A stretch of 32,569 nt of DNA from Basidiobolus ranarum (taxonomy: Eukaryota): contig JASJQH010006957.1 in NCBI GenBank assembly GCA_040143965.1, positions 1 to 32,569 on the forward strand. The letters run 5' to 3'. Of this stretch, positions 8 through 17,031 are shown one piece after another. Each line of letters begins with the position of its first letter. Within the stretch, counting starts at the first letter, position 1. Made by a program: the position numbers and the translations under genes. The notes under the pieces are model-generated. The model saw only the letters and a list, made by a program, of their open reading frames with translations. It was not told where the DNA came from and searched no databases.

Positions 8-80
8 GGGGCGTTGGCCTAATGGATAAGGCATCAGACTTCGGATCTGGGGATTGTGGGTTCGAGTCCCATGCGCCTCG
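8..80 (+). tRNA. tRNA-Arg, anticodon TCG (copy 1)
   Basis: 73-nt cloverleaf: acceptor GGGGCGT/GCGCCTC, D stem GCCT/AGGC, anticodon arm TCAGA-CTTCGGA-TCTGG, T arm GTGGG-TTCGAGT-CCCAT. No intron; followed by TTTT. Confidence 0.97.
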
Positions 81-542
81 TTTTGGTCAACCTTACTTTA
101 GTTTGAGTACTCTAGATATTAGAACAGGGCATGTATTTTAATGACCATCAAATTACCAAACTTTTGTAGCGCACTCACCAGAGTATTATGAAGGTAATTG
201 TAAAATACGAAAGGATGCCCAAATTGAAGTACTCACGCAGATTCTAGTTTTGATCAAACAATCGATAATTGGATTCACAGCTAACGAGTAGAATAGTGCA
301 ACTATGATAGCCATTATTCTCTATTACTTCATTCCATACACATAAAGTCAATAATTCAAATATTTATTTTGACTCGTATACCTTACTCTTGCAACTGGTC
401 AGCCTAAATCGGTTAATGATTTTGACTTACTTTAATTCAGCTTCCATTTGTGCAAGGTGTTCAGCAGTATAAAGAAACTTGACCAATATTATGGCTTGAA
501 TCACCAAAGAGAATTTCTAGTTGCCTTCTTCGGTGTTGTAAG

Positions 543-872
543 TGTTGAAATTGGCATAGCCTAAATATATATAGAGTCATATATAGCTTAGTATTTAGTT
601 ATTCCTTATTTCACTAGGATATCACTCACTATTCTCGAGAGGGATTTACTTGGAAGTTCTCAGATATAAAGATTTTTCAAACTTGCGCTAGAAGCCCCAA
701 ACTTTGCACACATGTTCCTGGGATCTTCTTTAACACATTTTACACGTTAGTTTGTTTACATCTTGACAAAACTATAAATGTCAACTTTCTACTCAATAAA
801 TCAATAAGTGAGAACCACCAATTCTTCTAGTTCTCCAAACCACTACAAACAAACTCCCAAAATACCTCAACA
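543..872 (+). mobile_element. Solo LTR, family A (copy A1, 330 bp)
   Basis: Ends TGTTGA...TCAACA. Flanks GTAAG/GCAAG (5-bp TSD with 1 mismatch). TATAAA at 773 then AATAAA at 795. Aligns with two inverted copies at 13251 and 13675. Confidence 0.85.
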
Positions 873-995
873 GCAAGGACATAAATATAAATCAATTAGA
901 TAACACACTATATGCATCGATGAATACAAGATCCTTCCTATTACTATAGCCAGCACAATGCAACATTGTGATATTAGTGAAAATGAAGACAAGAA

Positions 996-1068
996 TCATT
1001 GTTGGCTAAATAAAAGAGGTATTAGACTTCGGATATGATGAATGTAGATGCGAGTTCCATGCATTTCG
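996..1068 (+). pseudogene. Decayed tRNA-Arg(TCG) relic
   Basis: Ungapped alignment to the intact tRNA gives 49/73 identities (hand count). AGACTTCGGAT anticodon region is retained; acceptor stem and B box are disrupted. Confidence 0.85.
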
Positions 1069-1598
1069 TTGCTACCCTGAGCATCCTTAGCAATTAAGTA
1101 ATTAATAATGATCATGGAACAACGCGACATCAATTTGATATTATCGGTGAACCCAGGTTTCATAACCTCAATTTCTTGTTCAATATGTATACCTGGTTTA
1201 ATAATTTGTAGGCACCTCCTTGAGGCGTTCTATGCGTAGAACTAAGGTATTAGAGTTTCGAAAATCCGCCCTGTTAATCGACCCGTTATATCAGAAATGG
1301 ATATACTTAAACCATCTATCTTTAGAAATACTATTAGAACTAACTATTCCCTTTACACTCGATTTCTTTTTGCAAAAAGAATGTATCAACAACGGTTAGG
1401 GAAGACATAAAACTTGAATATACTAGTTGCAGTAACACAAGTTAAAGTAGAAGAGCAGAAGAATATATTTTCATCTAAAGTGTTCAGTGTTTTATTCAAA
1501 GCCTGGTTTTCCAAAATCAGTGTTAATTGGGTTGGTTGATACAGAAATGCTATATTGCACTTTGCAAAGTACACGCTTCAGTGTCCTACGGCTATAGA

Positions 1599-2082
1599 TT
1601 AATATTCTTGAGGATTAAATATAGTGATGAAGTAATAGTCCGGATCTATTGAAGTAAACCGTACAATTAGTGAATTATTCTATTAAACAAAAAGACACAC
1701 TTTTAAGCTATACATACTAGGAGCAATCATAATCTCATGTTTCTTTGTACGGACACGAAGGAATGTGACTTCGTTCTAGAATACGAGCAATTTAATTAAA
1801 GTTTAGCCTAGATTCAGAATGTTTTAATGTATACCTGGGGATCAATTTCCTGTACTGTTGATTTGGCCATGTTCACCAAGTTAGTAAAAAGGGTGCTGTA
1901 TTGGTTAGTTAAAGTATTGTCAAGGGTGGAGCGAATGGATAAGCCTTCCTTGTTTACAATAACCACTCCTTTAACACCTTTGCGTGAAGCCAAACGCTTG
2001 AGATGCTCATCTACCTCTGACTTGAAAAAGTTTGTATGTTAATTAGTGATAACAGGAATGTGTTTATGACCAAGTTTACCAT
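1599..2082 (-). CDS. DYNLRB: Dynein light chain Roadblock/LC7 (97 aa, 4 exons)
   Basis: Exons 2082-2080 (ATG only), 2020-1835, 1775-1718, 1645-1599, all GT-AG. Translation MSEVDEHLKRLASRKGVKGVVIVNKEGLSIRSTLDNTLTNQYSTLFTNLVNMAKSTVQEIDPQNEVTFLRVRTKKHEIMIAPNPDYYFITIFNPQEY matches the Roadblock consensus. Not in the ORF track. Confidence 0.93.
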
Positions 2083-2785
2083 TTTTCGTTGATAAGTAAA
2101 GGTTAAGTCAAAAGCATATATCATGAGCTTATACTTTTTATTAATCTTGGAATTGACGTAGGTAAGCTCCTTAATCCATACACCGATTAATGATTGATTT
2201 AACCGTTTGACTGAGTTTAGTACATGTATGCATTGAAACATCAGAATATGATAACAAAATGAAGTTGTAACTAATGTAACCATAATTAGTGGAGATAAGT
2301 CAAATGGTTTATGCTTACTTCATTAGCACATTGCTAGTATTTTATTTAGTATCTAACTCATTGAACAACAATAGATGCTCTCAATACTTTTTATTCCCGA
2401 AGACGTTCTGTATGATAACGCTAAGTCAAACAATATTTTGATCGTTGATTTTATCATTTGCTTATTTCCAATATATGCTTGTCAATCCAGAACCGTACTC
2501 TAATGCCAAACCCGACTACAATTTTCTTTGTCCATATCTCTGTTCTAGTCCTATGAAGGAAGAGTAAGGCGCCTTTCCCTCCTCTTAAATGGGATCTGCA
2601 ATGGATGTTATCAAGTTAATGATCGCCGCAATAATTTACAGCCAAACAAATTAATGGAATTTCAGTAGGAAAAATCATCGATAAATACAACTTGGAAAAA
2701 AAGGTAAACAAATAGATATATTCCATCAATATCATATTGAACAAATGCCACTTTAGACTTGTTTCATTATCACTTTCTTACATAC

Positions 2786-6292
<3,507 letters not shown>

Positions 6293-6839
6293 ACCTTTAA
6301 ATTAGTACATTATTGTATACGGATAATTTCCATTTTATAATCTTAACCAAATATACTTGTATAGTCCATTTCCTAATTTTTATGTATGATGTACCTTTTA
6401 GCATGCCAAATTGCGCTAGTACTGATTCGTGTACGTTCTTTGAAATAAATCAATCAAACTTCACAAAGCTGACTATAGTTCAACGCGCTGTTCTTGTGAT
6501 AATTGTTGATTGACATTACAGATGAATGCTCAAACATGATGACTGATTGGTTAAGACCAACAATTCAAATCAAGTCAAAACAAATGGATGGATGAGATTT
6601 GTTTTTGTTTATAGTTTAACAATCCACAGTCTCACAAACTCTGCGTCTGTTGATTCTTGAATTCTTTTATTTCGTGTTTTCTTCGGGCTTCACTTAACGT
6701 CCGAGTAGTTACTTGATAGCTCTTACAGTTCTAAATTACTCTAAAGTTATCGTACTTTCAAGTTGTTTATTCAACCCTTCACTCCTTTTACTTTTAACCT
6801 TTATTTTATCCAGCTTTTTCCTTTTTCGAAGTTTCGAAA

Positions 6840-8948
6840 ATGCCTTCTTCTCCACTTAGTACCCCAAGGAGGATGACCATTCATTCACCATTTAAAACCC
6901 CACATTCTCTGAAAAGAGGTTTTAATGATGATGCCTCCGAACGCGATTTACGCAGAAAATCGCTAATGGAATCCGTGAAACGACGCAGATCAGAGCTCTT
7001 TACTCCCAGAAGACGTATCTCCATGCTTGAAGGTTCCCCAAAGCAAACTCCCCGCAGAACACCTGGAACGCCAAATAGAAGATTGACCAACTTAGTGAGC
7101 AGCCCTTTGCCCGTAGCTCAGATGCTTTCAGCAGAGGAGATCAGTCATCGCTACGAAGAATGGATGAAAATCGCCGCTGATAATAAGATTAACACTAACA
7201 ATACCTGGGACTTTGCTCTTATTGATTTCTTCTACGATATGTCTCTGTTGAAAGAGGGCGAATCAGTGAATTTTCAAAAAGCCTCATGCACCCTTGACGG
7301 TTGTGTTAAAATTTACACATCTAGAGTTGACTCTGTAGCTTCAGAGACAGGTAAACTTCTGAATGGATTGGCTGAAAGTATCGATACCAAGTCTAGAGGA
7401 TCCTTCGATGATGAAGATGGAGGTAAAAGGGCAAAGAAGTCATCTAGAAGTGAGAATACCTTGGCAAAGGATTTCACTTCCTTAACTTTAAAGCAATTTG
7501 ATCTGGAGTTTTCGGTTGATCCGTTATTCAAAAAAACATCGGCTGATTTCGATGAAGGAGGTGCTCGCGGTCTTCTATTAAATCACCTTAGCATTCACAA
7601 TAATGGCAAAATCATCTTCGATGCCAGTGACGCCGCGCCATTTGAGAATGAAGATACTGAACCGGATGAAGAAGATTCTGATATCGACATAGGCAAATTG
7701 AAAGATAAATTCTTTGATAACTTTGATGACTTCTTGAGTCGTGACGTTTGCCCTTCTTTACAAAGCTTTGAATTGACTTCTGATACTTCTCCGGATATTG
7801 CTGCTCTCAAGAAAGTTATTGAAGACTTTACCGAAAATGAGTTCTACGATGACCAAAATGATGGCGATGATTATGATGATGATGATGACAACGATGATAA
7901 CAATACTCCATTCTTCGGTCATGACAACAATGACGATTTTGGACCAAACAACTTTGAAGATGGTGAAGATGATGTACGTACCACGGACCAAGCAAATCAG
8001 AACATGTTTAATGTGGATTTCGTACCCATGGCTAACGGTGGAGATGATGTATATTCTTACTTTGATTCTGCTTTCATGAAGAATTGGGCTGGTCCTGAGC
8101 ATTGGAAACTTCAACGTGCCCCGAAAGACAAGGTCGAGATTGCTGGAGAAAATCAAAAAAAGAAAACTGAAAAGCAGCAATTCCAGATTGACTTTATAAA
8201 CTCTGATGATATTGATGAAAAGAAATTGTTTGCCCCCACAAATAATACTACCTTAGCAAAGCCTTCCGAGAAGACAGCCGCCAAGACACTACTTCCAGAT
8301 GATATGCATTTCTCTTCAAAAAATCTACTTAGTCTATTTACGAAGCCTCAGGTCTCTATGATAACCAAGAAAAGACCAGCCTTTGATGATAATGGAGAGT
8401 ACGAAGGCGCCGTCTTTGGAGACGAGAATAACATGTTTGAAATCGGAAATAATAACGGAGCCGAAAGTCAAGCTGAAACTCAAGTTTCGTCTAATTTCTA
8501 TAACGATGCAGTTGATGACAATAATGATGACGACGATGACGACGACGGTTTACCTTTCCCCGATGTTTACGATGGCGTTGATTTTGGTGAACAATTGGTT
8601 GCTCAACCAAAGTTGATCAAACCAGAGTTCTTGAACTATGCCAAAACTGCCAAGAAGGTAGATGTGAAGAAACTCAAAGACAACATTTGGAAAGAACTAG
8701 TGGCAGACGAATCCAATGAAGCCTCAGACACAGAGGATCTGGAAGTACGAAAGGTAGAGGGAACGCAAAAGTTCACCGATGTCATTACCAACTTAAAGCA
8801 AGTTTATCCAGAAAAGAAGATGCAAGATATCTCTGTGTCTTTCTGCTTTATTTGCTTACTACATTTAGCAAATGAGAAAAACTTGGATATTTCAAACGAT
8901 GAAGCTTTGGGTGACTTGATTGTAAAGCAAAATGATGACTTGGCTTAG
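6840..8948 (+). CDS. BRN1: Condensin kleisin subunit (barren/Brn1/Cnd2/CAP-H), 702 aa, intronless
   Basis: Motifs NKINTNNTWDFALID, NFQKASCTLDGCVKIYTSRVDSV, DPLFKKTSADFDEGGARGLLLNHL, NWAGPEHWK and FICLLHLANEKNL. Confidence 0.96.
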   Translation: MPSSPLSTPRRMTIHSPFKTPHSLKRGFNDDASERDLRRKSLMESVKRRRSELFTPRRRISMLEGSPKQTPRRTPGTPNRRLTNLVSSPLPVAQMLSAEEISHRYEEWMKIAADNKINTNNTWDFALIDFFYDMSLLKEGESVNFQKASCTLDGCVKIYTSRVDSVASETGKLLNGLAESIDTKSRGSFDDEDGGKRAKKSSRSENTLAKDFTSLTLKQFDLEFSVDPLFKKTSADFDEGGARGLLLNHLSIHNNGKIIFDASDAAPFENEDTEPDEEDSDIDIGKLKDKFFDNFDDFLSRDVCPSLQSFELTSDTSPDIAALKKVIEDFTENEFYDDQNDGDDYDDDDDNDDNNTPFFGHDNNDDFGPNNFEDGEDDVRTTDQANQNMFNVDFVPMANGGDDVYSYFDSAFMKNWAGPEHWKLQRAPKDKVEIAGENQKKKTEKQQFQIDFINSDDIDEKKLFAPTNNTTLAKPSEKTAAKTLLPDDMHFSSKNLLSLFTKPQVSMITKKRPAFDDNGEYEGAVFGDENNMFEIGNNNGAESQAETQVSSNFYNDAVDDNNDDDDDDDGLPFPDVYDGVDFGEQLVAQPKLIKPEFLNYAKTAKKVDVKKLKDNIWKELVADESNEASDTEDLEVRKVEGTQKFTDVITNLKQVYPEKKMQDISVSFCFICLLHLANEKNLDISNDEALGDLIVKQNDDLA

Positions 8949-9479
8949 CGGTTGAGCTGACAATTCAATTAGATTTTATACCTTATCAAGTTTATTTCAT
9001 GTATCTTAGAAATTTTCGTCTAAATTTTGTGACTTCACTTTCCGTGTAATCTTTTGTTTACGGTTTAGTTTAACTTTCTGTTGTTCTAGGCATTTTGGAA
9101 ATGTACATTTCATTTAGTTTTTAAATAAATTATCAACACATTAAAACTAGAAATATGAGTAGTTGGTGCTTGCTATAATCATGAATACTAACTAAGAAAC
9201 ATACTAAGCCAGGATCTCTACTGATTTTCTCGAAACATCTAAACGTAGGGTCAATACTATTTGTTGTTGCTACCCTTGTTGTTTGTGTTCAGAAATTGAT
9301 CGTTTATTCTCTATTGGGATTGACTTCCAGAGTCTAAAATTCGTCGTCGTTACCTCCTCTCTAAGAAAGCTTTGGAAAAAGGTAAAAAAATGATATCACG
9401 TCATATAGGAATTTTCTCTAATATAACATAGTGTAAGGCATTATTTTAACGTTGTTTTATCCTATCCAGCCTATTAAAA

Positions 9480-9805
<326 letters not shown>

Positions 9806-10036
9806 CTACTTAATCCTACTAATGCAGCCATATACCAAAATCATATCTAGTACTGTAATTAATAAAGTACCTATTTTTTTCTTACATAAGTTCTTGAATT
9901 CCTTATTTTTACTTCCAACACTAGGTTAACTGAATAACTTTCAAAGGTATTTCGAGAGCTGTGATTTAAGCCAATACTTCATAAAGTTTAAGACACAACC
10001 GCTTTCTAATATGCACTAGAATATGGGCAAGCAACG

Positions 10037-10108
10037 CAGATCTTATGGAGCTCAGGCCCACAACCCTCATATTTGTAATCTGATACATTGATATCAGCAA
10101 ACGTCACC
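10037..10108 (-). pseudogene. Decayed tRNA-Arg relic
   Basis: Aligns to the reverse complement of the intact tRNA (31/50 identities over the first 50 nt, e.g. CCCACAACCC and TCTGATAC). Anticodon loop is mutated. Confidence 0.65.
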
Positions 10109-10639
10109 TTAGTTTTTTTGATAAGACAATATGATGGCTTTAAATGTGTACCAAATAATTGACAATCCCTCTTATCACTAACCATTGTATTATAGATTAT
10201 ACACGCTTATATAGTCTTTGCAGAATTGTCAAGTGAAAGAATGTTTGCTTGCCCGTGTTAGTTTTTCACTAAAGGTATTGAGCTACTATGTTAACCCTAA
10301 TATGAAACTGATGGTATCAAATATGTAATAGAGTTTAATTTCTTGACAGTACAAATAAAACATTCTATGTAATATTAATCCTTAGACGCTTCCAAACATT
10401 TAAAGCAACAATCCAAATGCATAGAAGATTCTTAGGATGTGCAGAACCTGTAGCCAGCAACCCGAAAAATTTCTTAAAAGTATCTTGAAAGGTTAGAGAG
10501 TATTGGTTCTACTTCACCTCATAAAATCTTATGGCAGCCATATCAAAAGCATCGTGATAATGCTCACGGAGCAAGTTTCGAAGATTTATTCATGACAAAT
10601 TATTAATTTGCTAGAGTAAATATGCTAGGAAGATTTCAG

Positions 10640-10876
10640 TGTTGTTACCAGAAATAGGATAACAATGAAAATCCAAATTACGCACTAAAAGGAATGGTTC
10701 AGAGAACACACATTCTCAGAACTTGAATATCCTATATATATCAACGTATTAACATATGAATAAATTGAAGTTCTTAAGCTATTTATTTACAACTTATCTT
10801 TCGCTTCCAACATGCTTATTCCTCACACCCTCCGCACACGTAGGAATCCTGACTGCTATCTTATTGGTGAATAACA
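10640..10876 (+). mobile_element. Solo LTR-like element, family B (237 bp), immediately upstream of a tRNA gene
   Basis: Ends TGTTGTTACC...GGTGAATAACA with a perfect 5-bp TSD TTCAG (10635-10639 / 10877-10881). Internal TATA run near 10733 and AATAAA at 10759. Removing it restores the flank seen upstream of the tRNA at 12079. Confidence 0.8.
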
Positions 10877-10899
10877 TTCAGCTTTAATGAAAACAGTAA

Positions 10900-10972
10900 G
10901 GGGCGTTGGCCTAATGGATAAGGCATCAGACTTCGGATCTGGGGATTGTGGGTTCGAGTCCCATGCGCCTCG
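10900..10972 (+). tRNA. tRNA-Arg(TCG) copy 2
   Basis: Identical to copy 1; followed by TTTT. Confidence 0.97.
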
Positions 10973-11397
10973 TTTTGCTCTTCATTTCTGTTGGCAATAG
11001 AACTGGTTAGGATATGTGTAACATCCTGTCATTTTATTCAGTTCAGCGCGAAACGGTTCAATATAACCGCCGAGTAAGTACTTCAGAAGAGCACTAGTAG
11101 GAACAACATTGAGATGATATTCTTACATACAGATTTCTCGTGACACCAATGTCTAAAAAATTGTAGTATCGCTTATAGCGAAGTAAAATGATAGTTTTGG
11201 AAATATATACATAATATGGTTTTGTGTGAGTTTCTGTGTGCTTATTACTGGTATATTTGCACAGGTAAGATATCTGATACTTGGGCATTTACATTCGAGC
11301 TGCTGGAAGTAGATCTATTTATGTATTGATTGCTCTACCGTACTACACCAGATCCCGTTGACTTTTTCATCAGAAACTGAAGAGATAGCAGCAAAAA

Positions 11398-11470
11398 CGA
11401 GGCGCATGGGACTCGAACCCACAATCCCCAGATCCGAAGTCTGATGCCTTATCCATTAGGCCAACGCCCC
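11398..11470 (-). tRNA. tRNA-Arg(TCG) copy 3
   Basis: Reverse complement identical to copy 1; T5 terminator. Confidence 0.97.
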
Positions 11471-12078
11471 TTACTTGTGATAATAACCTCTGGATGTTGG
11501 TACCACTAATATTCCTTCACTGATATTTATTTGTTTTCCTTGCAAGCGCTATATCAGCTATACATATTTTTAAAACTCGATCACTTCACCATCACAAGTG
11601 TAGCCTTATAGAAGTCTTTTATTCACTAACTAGGTGAAAGGGTAATCAATAACCTGAGTATAGATCTCACTTCACATTTAGATACCTCCACATATTGGTT
11701 TCTCAACAACCAAAAATTCCACTGCTAGGCGATCAACAAAAGGATTCAATTATTAATATCAAGTATGTAAAAGAGTTTAAATTCTTGGCAACACCAATAA
11801 AACAGTCTCTGCAATGTTCATTGTTAGAGCCTTTTAGTTATATGAATTGCTACTTCAAATGCATAGGATGTTCTTGAGAAGTGCAGGACACGTAATCAGC
11901 AACTTGAAGAATACGTTAAAAGAATCTTCAAGAATAGGGAGTATTGGTGCTAATTCACCAGATAAAATTCAAATGGTAGTCATGAAGATCATATGGATAA
12001 TGCTATAAATGATAAGATATTGGGTAACTTCTCGGAACAAATATGGTAGGATGTTTCTGGCAGTTAAGAAAACAGCAA

Positions 12079-12151
12079 GGGGCGTTGGCCTAATGGATAA
12101 GGCATCAGACTTCGGATCTGGGGATTGTGGGTTCGAGTCCCATGCGTCTCG
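12079..12151 (+). tRNA. tRNA-Arg(TCG) copy 4 (C69T variant)
   Basis: One difference from copy 1 at 12147 (GCGTCTC), giving G4:U69; T5 terminator. Confidence 0.96.
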
Positions 12152-12380
12152 TTTTTGTTTCTGTTCTTTGTACAAAAGACAACACATGCTTATAAGTAGT
12201 AAATTCTGAAGTGGTTACATGATGCAAAATTAAGTTGCCCACTGTAGAGTTTTGTAAAATCGTAAGAAATTCGTTTCGTTGGATTCACAGCAACCGTCAA
12301 TTACTAGGCTATACCATTTCTTTCAATAGACATTATCGCCTTGTTTATTACAACAAAAATGATGACATGAGGTCCAAAAG

Positions 12381-12453
12381 CGAGGCGCATGGGACTCGAA
12401 CCCACAATCCCCAGATCCGAAGTCTGATGCCTTATCCATTAGGCCAACGCCCC
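12381..12453 (-). tRNA. tRNA-Arg(TCG) copy 5
   Basis: Reverse complement identical to copy 1; followed by CTTTT. Confidence 0.97.
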
Positions 12454-12655
12454 TTGCTGTGATTCTTGATTCCTGCATTTTACTACCATATTTTCTTCAG
12501 CGAGATACGCAATAATTTGTCATAATTTGAGTTCTCAAAACGTGCTCCGTAAGAATTATCAATATGCTTGTATCATGACTACCGCTTTGATTGAATTACG
12601 TGGAATAGTACCAGTGTTCATGTCATGAATATCTAACTCACCACATACTAAGTAT

Positions 12656-12684
12656 TATATGTATATGTATATATATATATATAT
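12656..12684. repeat. (TA)n microsatellite
   Basis: tatatgtatatgtatatatatatatatat. Confidence 0.85.
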
Positions 12685-13250
12685 TTGTTATTACCTCAAA
12701 TGATTGGATAGCTTTAACAACTAATATTACCGCTCCTCTTTTGTCAGTATTGACAAGAATTGGTTCACCTTAACATACTGGGTATGAATAATTTTATCCT
12801 TGAGTTAGTATCCTAGCGGAATACTGTTCGAGGTTAACAAAATATGATCATTGAAAGTGGCCTATATGCGGAGTTAGTACAATATCCTGTTCAATGAGCA
12901 CACTTTTTTTTCTGAATTATTGAATAAATGTCTTATCAATACTATACTAAATGTTCCAAATTCATGTCATGTGAAGCAACATAGTGTGAATAGTTGTTAA
13001 GTACACCTACACCTTATATTCCGCAACTTGCAAGGGTGGTTATTGTAAAAACATCTACTTCTTAACCTACCATTTCAGATGGCTAATCGCAAACATTTAT
13101 GTAACAGTTACACTTAGAATAGTCGTTTTTAAGTATTATACTAACTAGTAATATATTGTGAATAAATATACTGTATAGCACATAGCTGATTCCTTTGTTA
13201 TGCTCTGTTTGCAAATGTAAGTATGATTATACCTCATAGATATTACCCCC

Positions 13251-13601
13251 TGTTAGAGTATTTTGGGTGTTTGTTGAAGTGGTTTGGAGAACTAGAAGAA
13301 TTGGTGGTTCTCACTTATTGATTTATTGAGTAGAAAGTTGACATTTATAGTTTTGTCAAGAGGTAAACAAATAAACGTGTAGAATGTGTCAAGGAAGGTC
13401 CCAGGAACATGTGTGCAAAGTTTAGGGCCTCTAGAACAAGTTTAAAGAATATATACTTCTGAGAGCTTCTAAGTAAATTCCGATTGAAAATAGTGGGTGA
13501 TATCTTAGTGAAATATGGAATAACTAAATACTTAGCTATATATGACTCTATATATATTTAGGCTATATTATATAGATGTTTAGGCTATGCCAATTTCAAC
13601 A
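13251..13601 (-). mobile_element. Solo LTR, family A (copy A2)
   Basis: TGTTAG...TTTCAACA on the + strand, homologous to 543-872 inverted. Shares one flank (CTTAC...) with A1; the other flank (CCCCC) differs, so there is no TSD. Confidence 0.85.
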
Positions 13602-13674
13602 CTTACAACACCAAAGAAGGCAACTACAAAGTCTCTTTGGTGATTCAAGCCATAATATTTGTCAAGTTTCTTTA

Positions 13675-14022
13675 TGTTAAAGTATTTGGGAGCCTGTTGG
13701 AAGTGGTTTGGAGAATTACAGGAATTGGTGGTTTTCACTTATTTATTTATTGAATAGAAAGTTGACATTTATAGTTTTGTCAAGAGGTAAACAGATAAAC
13801 GTGTAGAATGTGTTAAGGAAGGTCCCAGGAACAAGTGTGCAAAGTTTGGGGCTTCTAGCACAAGTTTGAAAAATCTATTTGTCTGAGAACTTCTAAGTTG
13901 GTAAAAATATTCTAAGTAAATTCCTTATGAGAATAATGGATAATATCTTAGTGAATTATAAGAGAACTAAGTACTAAGCTATATATGACTATATAGGTGT
14001 TTAGGCAAAGCTAACTTCAACA
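13675..14022 (-). mobile_element. Solo LTR, family A (copy A3, 348 bp)
   Basis: TGTTAA...TTCAACA with a perfect TSD CTTTA (13670-13674 / 14023-14027). The empty site is preserved in the left arm (470-474, TAAAG). Confidence 0.92.
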
Positions 14023-14198
14023 CTTTATACTGCTGAACACCTTGAGTACTCCAATTTGGGCATCCTTTCGTATTTTACAATTACCTTCATAATACTCTGG
14101 TGAGTGCGATACAAAAGTTTGGTAATTTGATGGTCATTAAAATACATGCCCAATTCTAATATCTAGAGTACTCAAAACTAAAGTAAGGTTGACCAAAA

Positions 14199-14271
14199 CG
14201 AGGCGCATGGGACTCGAACCCACAATCCCCAGATCCGAAGTCTGATGCCTTATCCATTAGGCCAACGCCCC
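14199..14271 (-). tRNA. tRNA-Arg(TCG) copy 6
   Basis: Reverse complement identical to copy 1; shares its 3' flank with copy 1. Confidence 0.97.
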
Positions 14272-14611
14272 TTTCTTCCGAATTTCGTACTCTGGATCAT
14301 CCTATTTTAATTAATGTAAGAACAAGAACTCAATATCCTGACAACTCAATTGACTTCAAGTGGAATATTTTTCTGTTCACAGTATACTGTTTATTGAATT
14401 AAATTATACATACAAATAAATAGAAGAAATGTACGTTTAACAGATGTAAGAAAAAAGATCATGCCATCTACCCAATTACTATCATTGATAGAATAGTTTC
14501 TCTATGAATATATGTATAGGTTACTTGGAATAAAAAATCTTGACTAAAGAACTACGCTATCGAATGAAATATTCATGGGAATTCTTGTACACCAACGGTT
14601 ATATTATTCCC

Positions 14612-15196
14612 TTATTTCTTGTGCTGGCTTCTTTGTCTCATCTCCTTCTTTCTAATACGTTGAAGTTTCTTGGCGGAGACCTGTTACGATAGCAATTATT
14701 GTATGAAAAAGTCAGTGTTCTGTTACCAGTAAAAGCTGCATATTACTGATTTTAATGCCGCGATGTAAATAAATAAATAGCTTACCAAAGCTTGTAATTT
14801 TTCAAGTCTTTCCTTTTCTTCTTGAGCCTTCTTACGCTCTAAAGCTCTATTTTTCGATTCCTAGTAAGAAAAAGACAGAGTTAGAACATAATTAAACACA
14901 AAATATAAATAAGTTTACGCAGAATTATGAATACTCTGCCAAACGATGTAAACATGAATAAATACCTCTTTGATTCTGAGTTTCTCGTCTTTTAATTCCT
15001 TTTCGATCGCTCTAATAGCTTGAATTCTGTTGCGTTCGCGTGTACGTGCTGCCCAGTCCTGGCTTACACCCGCTGGTAAATGGGTACGTCTGTAAGCTGT
15101 TTTGGGTTGCTTCCATATTTTTCCAGATACTCTAGTAGCAGGAGCATTGATGGGCTTTTTTTCGGTTTGTGTGGTGGCTGTTGTAGTATCAGACAT
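14612..15196 (-). CDS. CGR1: rRNA-processing protein Cgr1 family (3 exons)
   Basis: RVSGKIWK motif, basic coiled coil, and VSAKKLQRIRKKE. Exons 15196-14966, 14860-14786, 14680-14612. Confidence 0.88.
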
Positions 15197-15540
15197 ATTT
15201 CTTGAGATATATATTAAAGTAACGGAGGTGCTTTCGGTATTCTTGACTTCTTATTACACTGAATTTGTGTAAGAAATTGTATTCTTGAAGGAAAAAAAAA
15301 AAGAAAATTTCCATTTGTAATTTCCCATTTAATCTGGAATCATCAAGCTTCAATTATATCCATGATGTATTCTAGAATAAAGGAAACTTCCCAAGGATAG
15401 GTGGGATGAATTTCTATTTGTTTATGTTCAATTTCGAATCAATACTTCATTGTTTAGTAAGTGATTTTGATATAACACCATTTGGTTTCTGATATTCAAT
15501 ATTTTATCTTGGTTTTTTCGCTCCTTTAATATCACTCACG

Positions 15541-17031
15541 ATGATGAATGGAGAACGTGTTGACTTGTCGGTTACTCCTAATGAACAGTTGACTGATCCT
15601 CCCCTTGACGCGCTTCGTTATTTTAACCGATGTCGCTTGAAGTCCGCCTTTGACTCCATCTTTCAAAAATATGGAAGAGATTTTGAAGAGAGTGACGTGG
15701 TTGATATAAGTACTGGTGAGGTGATAGAAGATAAAGGATTTTTAAAGAAAACACCCCAAAGAAAACTTGGTTCCTTGTTCAAACCAAAAGAAGAAAAGAC
15801 TCCGTTCACGAAGAATATGTTTCATTTACTAGAACCAGGAAATTCTACTAGTACAGAAGAAGAAACTTTACAAGAAACTCCTAATAAAACTCCCTTAGTG
15901 AAAGAGGTTTATGACGAAGAAGACTTTGAGAGTATATTGGTTCAGGAAAAATCTCACTTATCGCGCAATTTCCCTCCTTTCTATTCCCCTTCAACAATGG
16001 GGTTTAATCCTTCCCCATTTTTACCTTCTAATTTGAATCCGTTATTTAATACTCCTACTAGAAAAGCGATCCCTTTCAATAACACGCGTTCAATTATTTC
16101 ACCCAACTCGAATGACTTGCCTGTAGATTCTCCCGCAACAAACGCCTCACCACATAGAACTGAATTAGTTAACTCCCATACTATTCATAACCCACTGAAA
16201 TCGCCACCAACCAACACTCAATTGGAACTCAAAGAATCACCTCAATCACCCGCCAGTAACACTCTCGAGCCAGTACAAGATTTCATCACATCTCCATTAT
16301 CACCCACACCCACTGTGATACGACCAACAGCTACCTTAAATGTTGCTCCTCACGTTTCCACCGTCATTCCCACCTCCACCTCCACGACCAAGAAAAGAAA
16401 ATGGGAAGATTCAGCGGATAATGAAAAAATTGTGTCGAATTATGAATCCATGGATTTATTCGAAGTTGCACCCCAAGATAGAGACTTTGAAGTAGTAGTA
16501 TTAATAGAATCAAAGTCCCAGCAATTCCTCTCTTCTTTTACAAGTGAAAATCAGGAACCGGTCACCTTCACTTCTACTGATGATTTATCACCCAAAAGCT
16601 ACGTCTCTTCCATGGTCTCAGAACTTGTTAATATTAGACGAGCCGCTTCTAGAGCTAATACACCCACATTCAAAGAACACTTGGAGAAATACGAAGCCAA
16701 TGTTGAAGAGAGTCAAGATGATGATTCACACTCCATTGTATATGAGTATCTTGAAACTTCTAGAAATTTCATGGATAGCGATTCAATTGATTTCTCCAAA
16801 AAAGAAAGTCTGGAGATTTCTTCCAGCAGAGAAGATAACCAAAAATCCATTTCTTATCAAGTCCAGTTATTAGAAACTTCTCACACTATACAGACTCAAG
16901 AAATGGAACTAGTAGACCATTCCTTTACAAAACCAACTCTAGTAACGGAAACTAACGGTTGTAAAGGTTATGGAAAATGTACTAAAGCCTTTTGCTTTGA
17001 CTGCGCTTTCGTAGAAACTGAGATAGATTAA
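15541..17031 (+). CDS. SCM3: CENP-A chaperone Scm3/HJURP-like protein (496 aa)
   Basis: N-terminal RLKSAFDSIFQKYGRDFEESDVVDISTGEVIEDKG matches the Scm3 domain. S/T/P-rich disordered middle and a C-terminal CKGYGKCTKAFCFDC motif. Confidence 0.85.
   Translation: MMNGERVDLSVTPNEQLTDPPLDALRYFNRCRLKSAFDSIFQKYGRDFEESDVVDISTGEVIEDKGFLKKTPQRKLGSLFKPKEEKTPFTKNMFHLLEPGNSTSTEEETLQETPNKTPLVKEVYDEEDFESILVQEKSHLSRNFPPFYSPSTMGFNPSPFLPSNLNPLFNTPTRKAIPFNNTRSIISPNSNDLPVDSPATNASPHRTELVNSHTIHNPLKSPPTNTQLELKESPQSPASNTLEPVQDFITSPLSPTPTVIRPTATLNVAPHVSTVIPTSTSTTKKRKWEDSADNEKIVSNYESMDLFEVAPQDRDFEVVVLIESKSQQFLSSFTSENQEPVTFTSTDDLSPKSYVSSMVSELVNIRRAASRANTPTFKEHLEKYEANVEESQDDDSHSIVYEYLETSRNFMDSDSIDFSKKESLEISSSREDNQKSISYQVQLLETSHTIQTQEMELVDHSFTKPTLVTETNGCKGYGKCTKAFCFDCAFVETEID

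Follow-up and report, generated by a model that had tools for sequence, protein, structure and literature searches.

In the centromeres of Schizosaccharomyces pombe, identical tRNA genes in the imr inverted repeats flank a central segment of about 10 kb. The duplication of tRNA genes into arrays is stated as a general property in the available part of PMC13063481, and the survey of Bermudez-Santana et al. (2010, PMC2888827), as far as its available text goes, describes homogeneous clusters of tRNA genes (tDNAs) across eukaryotes: members of one isoacceptor family whose neighbours lie less than 1 kb apart, with interspersed pseudogenes and a rapid turnover by duplication and deletion. The same survey reports lineage-specific biases towards head-to-head or tail-to-tail pairs. 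The locus considered here belongs among these arrangements. It lies on a single contig of 32,569 bases (the window, that is, the whole stretch analysed), and it contains six intact and two decayed genes for tRNA-Arg(UCG), whose anticodon reads TCG in the DNA. We consider it likely that the locus is a homogeneous nuclear tRNA cluster which arose by birth-and-death duplication under purifying selection. It is an ordinary sort of tRNA gene cluster and no new system.

The six intact genes were found by ARAGORN and by the Rfam model RF00005 at its gathering threshold (cutoff 29 bits), both run over the whole window. Each program reports exactly six tRNA genes, all of them Arg genes with the anticodon TCG, and neither ARAGORN nor Rfam finds another tRNA species, or another Rfam family above threshold, in the 32,569 bases. 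Copy 1 lies at 8-80 (+), 7 bp from the left end of the contig, copy 2 at 10900-10972 (+), copy 3 at 11398-11470 (-), copy 4 at 12079-12151 (+), copy 5 at 12381-12453 (-) and copy 6 at 14199-14271 (-). Their RF00005 scores range from 54.7 to 57 bits, all six being above the cutoff. The bodies of 73 nt are identical in five of the six; copy 4, with 54.7 bits, differs by a single C>T at 12147, which changes the fourth acceptor-stem pair from G4-C69 to G4-U69. A run of 4-5 T starts at +1 or +2 (a gap of 0-1 nt) after every copy, as TTTT directly after copy 1, and an A-box-like TGGCCTAATGG and a B-box GGTTCGAGTCC are read at the expected places in all six bodies; these motifs we take to be the A and B boxes by their consensus sequences. 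By their cloverleaf scores, boxes and terminators, the six copies are predicted to be functional nuclear tRNA genes with a type 2 promoter of RNA polymerase III (Pol III). They would be six independent Pol III genes for an ordinary, deeply conserved fungal tRNA-Arg(UCG), which would read CGA and probably CGG by wobble. A sequence-only reading of the window had described an amplified single-species array of six intact tRNA-Arg(UCG) genes, five of them identical, with no other tRNA species, and in all these respects it was correct. Two kinds of weak Rfam match at E<=10 were rejected: MIR2630 at 12107-12424 (38.8 bits against a cutoff of 144) is a by-product of the tRNA palindrome described below, and the Plastid-ycf2 match on the antisense of each tRNA is a by-product of the antisense strands and not a gene.

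The units of duplication were identified by self-BLAST of the window. Copy 1 and its 3' flank make up the left arm (3-873, of which 236-452 is unmatched in the right arm) of an outer inverted repeat whose right arm (13250-14276) holds copy 6 and its 3' flank; 3-873 pairs with 14276-13250, over arms of about 0.9-1.0 kb that are 91-97% identical. The identity is graded: 97.4% in the 155 bp adjoining the tRNA (4 mismatches) and 90.8% farther away (37 in 404; Fisher p = 0.006 for the contrast). The 12.4 kb between the arms carry the genes for Roadblock/LC7, Smc5, Cnd2 and LC8, relic R and the four central tRNA copies. Among the latter, the flank upstream of copy 2 (10315-10564, +) is an old direct repeat of the flank upstream of copy 4 (11757-12004, +), to which it is 73% identical. 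Copies 4 and 5 form a quasi-palindrome of 515 nt (12009-12523), composed of a 70-bp 5' flank with copy 4, a 217-bp spacer, and copy 5 with its own 70-bp 5' flank. Its 5' flanks are 75% identical. When folded as single-stranded DNA, the quasi-palindrome gives a single long hairpin of -149 kcal/mol (z = -20.8), a value equalled by 0 of 100 shuffled sequences. Between copies 2 and 3, similarity stops no more than about 5 bp from the tRNA bodies. Two minor features belong to the same region. The right arm contains an internal tandem duplication (13251-13563 and 13675-14006, 87% identical); this stretch of 13251-14006 is non-coding, has a unit of about 424 bp that is present as a single copy in the left arm, and no Pfam family passes the cutoff in it. 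A short (TA)n/(TATG)n microsatellite occupies 12650-12690, between copy 5 and the right arm of the outer repeat.

The two decayed copies were recovered with an nhmmer profile built from the six intact copies and run over the window, in which the next match had an E-value of 0.88. Relic L, a decayed tRNA-Arg(TCG), lies at 1001-1067 (+; E 5e-8) and retains 49 of 73 positions. Relic R, on the opposite strand, has a match core at 10045-10089 (-; E 0.002) and a global alignment covering about 10038-10108, with 48 positions retained and indels. The Rfam tRNA model recognises neither relic even at E<=10. These two matches bear out the relics at 996+ and 10037- that had been proposed from the letters of the window. 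The flanks of the relics were compared with each other down to a word size of 7 and E<=1 and no similarity was found; an older inverted repeat around the pair is rejected on this ground. Changes of G>A or C>T account for 14 of the 24 substitutions in relic L. Their predominance could reflect either an AT-biased mutation spectrum or the deamination of cytosine, between which so small a sample does not decide.

Ordered by the divergence of their flanks, the copies form an age series. The oldest members are the two relics, with flanks that can no longer be aligned; the direct duplicate (flanks 73% identical) and the quasi-palindrome (75%) are middle-aged, and the outer inverted repeat, at 91-97%, is the youngest. 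The model we propose is one of repeated local duplication at a single locus, both inverted and direct, followed by the decay of some copies. The tRNA genes and short inverted repeats would favour fold-back or template-switch duplication and thereby give rise to tail-to-tail pairs. Purifying selection on the working tRNA would keep the bodies uniform, and gene conversion close to the genes may contribute some of this uniformity.

The tRNA bodies are clearly constrained, being far more alike than the divergence of their flanks allows. We computed the probability of the observed body differences if the bodies had drifted at the rate of the flanks. The flanks of the direct repeat match at 181 positions and mismatch at 66 (73%), against a single difference among the 73 positions of the bodies (P = 4e-9); for the palindrome, with flanks 75% identical, at most one body difference in 73 has a probability of 2e-8; and for the distal part of the outer repeat, 90.8% identical, bodies matching at 73 of 73 positions have a probability of 9e-4. 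The uniform bodies amid diverged flanks noticed in the sequence-only reading are thus well founded. A further observation comes from metagenome contigs, among which there is one exact match to the 73-mer, a lone gene at 167-239 (-) of a contig of 1,680 bp with a GC content of 30.5% (L001). There the tRNA gene adjoins an intron-bearing gene for GMP synthase. The first exon of the latter has its best matches in Glomeromycotina (83%), and from these 58 residues the contig may tentatively be placed in that group. To judge from this match, the tRNA body appears frozen across fungal phyla, and because the identical 73-mer is found in a distantly related fungus, purifying selection would suffice to account for the uniform bodies. 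The match also lends indirect support to the prediction that the genes of the window are transcribed, processed and charged with arginine.

The identity of the copies could also stem mainly from gene conversion among clustered genes, that is, from concerted evolution instead of selection on each copy, a possibility to which we give some weight while holding it doubtful. The gradient in the outer repeat, 97.4% identical beside the tRNA and 90.8% farther away (p = 0.006), is what such conversion would leave, and an upstream ACAGYAA common to four of the six copies points in the same direction. Against it stands the 73-mer of the unrelated AT-rich fungal contig, whose identity to the copies here shows that selection is enough by itself to freeze the sequence. 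Moreover, the similarity common to all copies extends no farther than 7-16 bp on the upstream side of the gene and about 8 bp on the downstream side, as does the shared tract in most pairs, copy 4 retains its private substitution, and two copies have decayed unrepaired.

Set beside the clusters of PMC2888827, in so far as that source was available, the locus agrees in its essentials and departs from them in its periphery. All six genes are Arg(TCG), as expected of a cluster of one isoacceptor, and the gaps among copies 2 to 5 (425, 608 and 229 bp) bring the four central copies within the spacing of less than 1000 nt, or five tDNAs if relic R, 810 bp from copy 2, is included. Copies 1 and 6 fall outside the strict cluster. 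The distance from copy 5 to copy 6, 1,745 bp, exceeds that spacing, and the sole neighbour within reach of copy 1 is relic L, 920 bp away, the two relics being themselves 8,977 bp apart. These outer two copies belong to the locus through the kilobase-scale inverted repeat around protein genes, a feature unlike the clusters described in the available text of that survey. The pairs described there are mostly parallel, whereas orientation alternates here, and among fungi that text mentions only Cryptococcus and no early-diverging fungus. As for Basidiobolus, to which the proteins of the window point (see below), no publication on the organisation of nuclear tRNA genes was found among the matches listed; in the available parts of the papers, PMC7466969 mentions tRNA in an enzyme name and a reference, and PMC9713403 deals with mitochondrial tRNAs only.

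The tandem tDNA arrays of plants, such as the Ser/Tyr (SYY) arrays of Arabidopsis, share with this locus a local amplification beyond the dispersed set, according to the available portions of PMC12308677 and PMC7544208. As described there, they are arranged head-to-tail in tens of units and are partly silenced in heterochromatin, whereas here we find six copies in mixed orientation with diverged spacers. The tail-to-tail arms and the short asymmetric spacer of 12009-12523 resemble the inverted duplications attributed to fold-back or template switching in the accessible text of PMC3907307 and PMC10766186; unlike those, the present structure is an old, diverged end product (flanks 75%) from which the mechanism has to be deduced.

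Two further explanations were weighed. The first, a tRNA-derived short interspersed element (SINE) or other mobile element, is rejected: shared similarity ends near the genes, every intact tRNA runs straight into a Pol III terminator, and there is no open reading frame (ORF) with a transposon domain. The latter point comes from a Pfam scan (E<=0.1) of 36 sequences taken from the arms of the repeat, the spacers and the genes nearby, five of these sequences belonging to the Robl, LC8 and Cgr1 genes. Only these real genes are above the cutoff, with the families Robl_LC7, Dynein_light and Cgr1; the other 31, spacer and repeat-arm ORFs of 45 aa or more, all stay below it, and no transposon family was matched. 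The second is an artefact of assembly, in which mis-joins or fold-back chimeras would have produced the repeats, or the inverted arm where the contig ends. The contig does end 7 bp from a repeat copy, which suggests that the assembler broke at the repeat. Chimeric fold-backs, however, would be near-identical and adjacent, and the arms here are only 73-97% identical, contain indels and include a tandem duplication, while every copy has unique flanks continuous with intact genes. We therefore regard an artefact as extremely unlikely.

The orientation of the copies calls for a separate treatment. Four convergent pairs had been proposed in the sequence-only reading. Two of them, 8+/14199- and 12079+/12381-, prove to be inverted duplications by the homology of their flanks, whereas 10900+/11398- and the relic pair have no flank homology and are pairs by orientation only. 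The whole order, + + - + - + - -, is balanced, and by an arithmetic estimate such an order has a chance of about 14/256; taken alone it is suggestive, not compelling, and proves little.

Functions of tDNAs as boundaries and in relation to condensin are known in S. cerevisiae and S. pombe. An architectural role of the locus would build on these functions: inward-facing tDNAs bound by TFIIIC would act as boundaries or as loading sites of condensin or Smc5/6, and would insulate the 12.4-kb block that carries Smc5, Cnd2 and two dynein light chain genes. The outermost copies cap the inverted repeat around this block, and the order of orientations is fully nested, both of which such a role would lead one to expect. 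The window offers no extra sites made of a B-box alone: the B-box 13-mer, searched with up to three mismatches, has nine matches where 4.6 are expected, seven of the nine being the six genes and relic L, and the remaining two are at chance level. In addition, two of the eight copies have been left to decay, and the four central copies all stand on one side of the block, bracketing nothing. An architectural role seems unlikely to us. The presence of Smc5 and Cnd2 inside the array concerns gene products and not binding sites, and we treat it as a curiosity. A bolder combination, in which one locus would hold all or nearly all tRNA-Arg(UCG) genes, these tDNAs doubling as boundaries bound by TFIIIC and condensin, and in which the outer repeat would insulate and possibly flip the 12.4-kb block of Cnd2 and Smc5, is in our opinion very improbable. 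If it were true, the genes of the SMC machinery would themselves be coupled to a chromatin domain organised by tDNAs.

The locus also has a likeness to the centromeres of S. pombe. Here too, identical tRNA genes stand in inverted repeats around a central segment. Unlike the imr repeats, which enclose a gene-free core, those of the present locus enclose four protein genes at a GC content of 0.33-0.41, and there is one tRNA species and no outer repeats. GC content across the segment between the arms stays within 0.33-0.41 and shows no trough. A centromere of the S. pombe type is rejected on account of the four protein genes (Robl, Smc5, Cnd2 and LC8) and the normal GC content between the arms.

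A last explanation concerns decoding. Six copies of one isoacceptor in 14 kb could answer to an unusually high demand for CGA and CGG, for example from CGA-rich genes that are highly expressed or horizontally acquired; Basidiobolus has many genes of bacterial origin, possibly shifting its codon demand (PMC7466969, as far as available). Codon usage was sampled from 10 Pfam-supported ORFs of the window, which comprise 3,599 codons, 200 of them for Arg: AGA 83, CGT 51, CGA 26, CGC 23, AGG 11 and CGG 6. CGA thus makes up 13% of the Arg codons (7.2 per 1000) and CGG 3%, and together they account for 16% of Arg and 0.9% of all codons. The unusual CGA/CGG demand offered in the sequence-only reading finds no support in this local sample, which is dominated by AGA and CGT. 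The totals of tRNA genes in 11 eukaryotes range from 170 to 570 (PMC1693877, available part), and by our own scaling six genes for about 0.9% of codons would be proportionate if the genome has several hundred tRNA genes, as is usual in eukaryotes. The copy number of tRNA genes scales with genome size (PMC9858662), and the genomes of Basidiobolus exceed those of other zygomycetes in size (PMC7466969), both according to the parts of these sources at hand. The number of copies would then simply match a moderate CGA demand in a large genome rich in tRNA genes, and an exceptional demand appears to us decidedly unlikely.

Several points weigh against the birth-and-death cluster under purifying selection that we favour. 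Of the genome itself, the evidence covers this one contig of 32,569 bases, and the codon sample (3,599 codons, 10 ORFs) is small, local and unweighted for highly expressed genes. The fold-back mechanism is deduced solely from the finished structure. The greater likeness of the outer repeat beside the tRNA may fit gene conversion or two separate events, and from this gradient it follows that selection alone may not be the whole story. Finally, the fully nested inward-facing order, with its chance of about 5%, is suggestive, and an architectural role under selection keeps a small probability.

With these points in mind, the locus offers a clean dated series of the birth and death of tRNA genes in an early-diverging fungus. 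Its importance is modest: young, middle-aged and dead copies stand side by side and show the strength of the hold on a 73-bp body amid drift. The kilobase-scale inverted repeat and the 515-nt quasi-palindrome near Smc5 and Cnd2 are plausible sites of inversion and instability, and likely causes of breaks in assembly. If the six genes were the only tRNA-Arg(UCG) genes of the genome, the exact-match decoding of CGA would depend on one recombination-prone locus.

The identity of the host is indicated by the protein genes of the window. Its eukaryotic ORFs include Smc5, Cnd2, Scm3, the 30-kDa subunit of complex I, mitochondrial ribosomal proteins and dynein light chains with short introns. The closest relative of Cnd2 is that of Basidiobolus meristosporus (84% identity), followed by a second Basidiobolus paralogue, Glomeromycotina and Kickxellomycotina, all at 49% or less; therefore the DNA would come from a Basidiobolus-like fungus (Zoopagomycota) and not from a yeast. 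Judged by these proteins, the host is an early-diverging filamentous fungus. This bears on the remark in the sequence-only reading that well-studied yeasts have the CGA-reading tRNA as a minor isoacceptor or not at all. Its absence holds in S. cerevisiae and the hemiascomycetes, which lack a native tRNA-Arg(UCG) and decode CGA through inosine (PMC3753928, in the text available), and the comparison is inapplicable here, since Cnd2 points to Basidiobolus. B. meristosporus itself has a pair of Cnd2 paralogues, which share 84% and 49% identity with the protein of the window; this pair hints at an old duplication of the gene or of the genome in the genus.

Four of the protein genes lie inside the inverted repeat: the dynein light chain Roadblock/LC7 (Robl), with an exon at 1814-2038 (-) identified by Pfam; Smc5, with a long exon at 2759-5620 (+); the condensin subunit 2 (Cnd2/Brn1) at 6840-8948 (+); and the dynein light chain LC8, whose first exon, also a Pfam match, is at 9480-9685 (+). 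Directly outside the last tRNA copy stands a gene of the Cgr1 family (rRNA processing) with two exons at 14723-15250 (-), the first matching at 2.1e-12 and the second falling under the Pfam cutoff. The gene for Scm3, a chaperone of CENP-A, sits just outside the inverted repeat. Together with Roadblock/LC7, Smc5, Cnd2 and LC8, it makes up a grouping of segregation and motor genes within about 15 kb (1814-17031), which may be due to chance.

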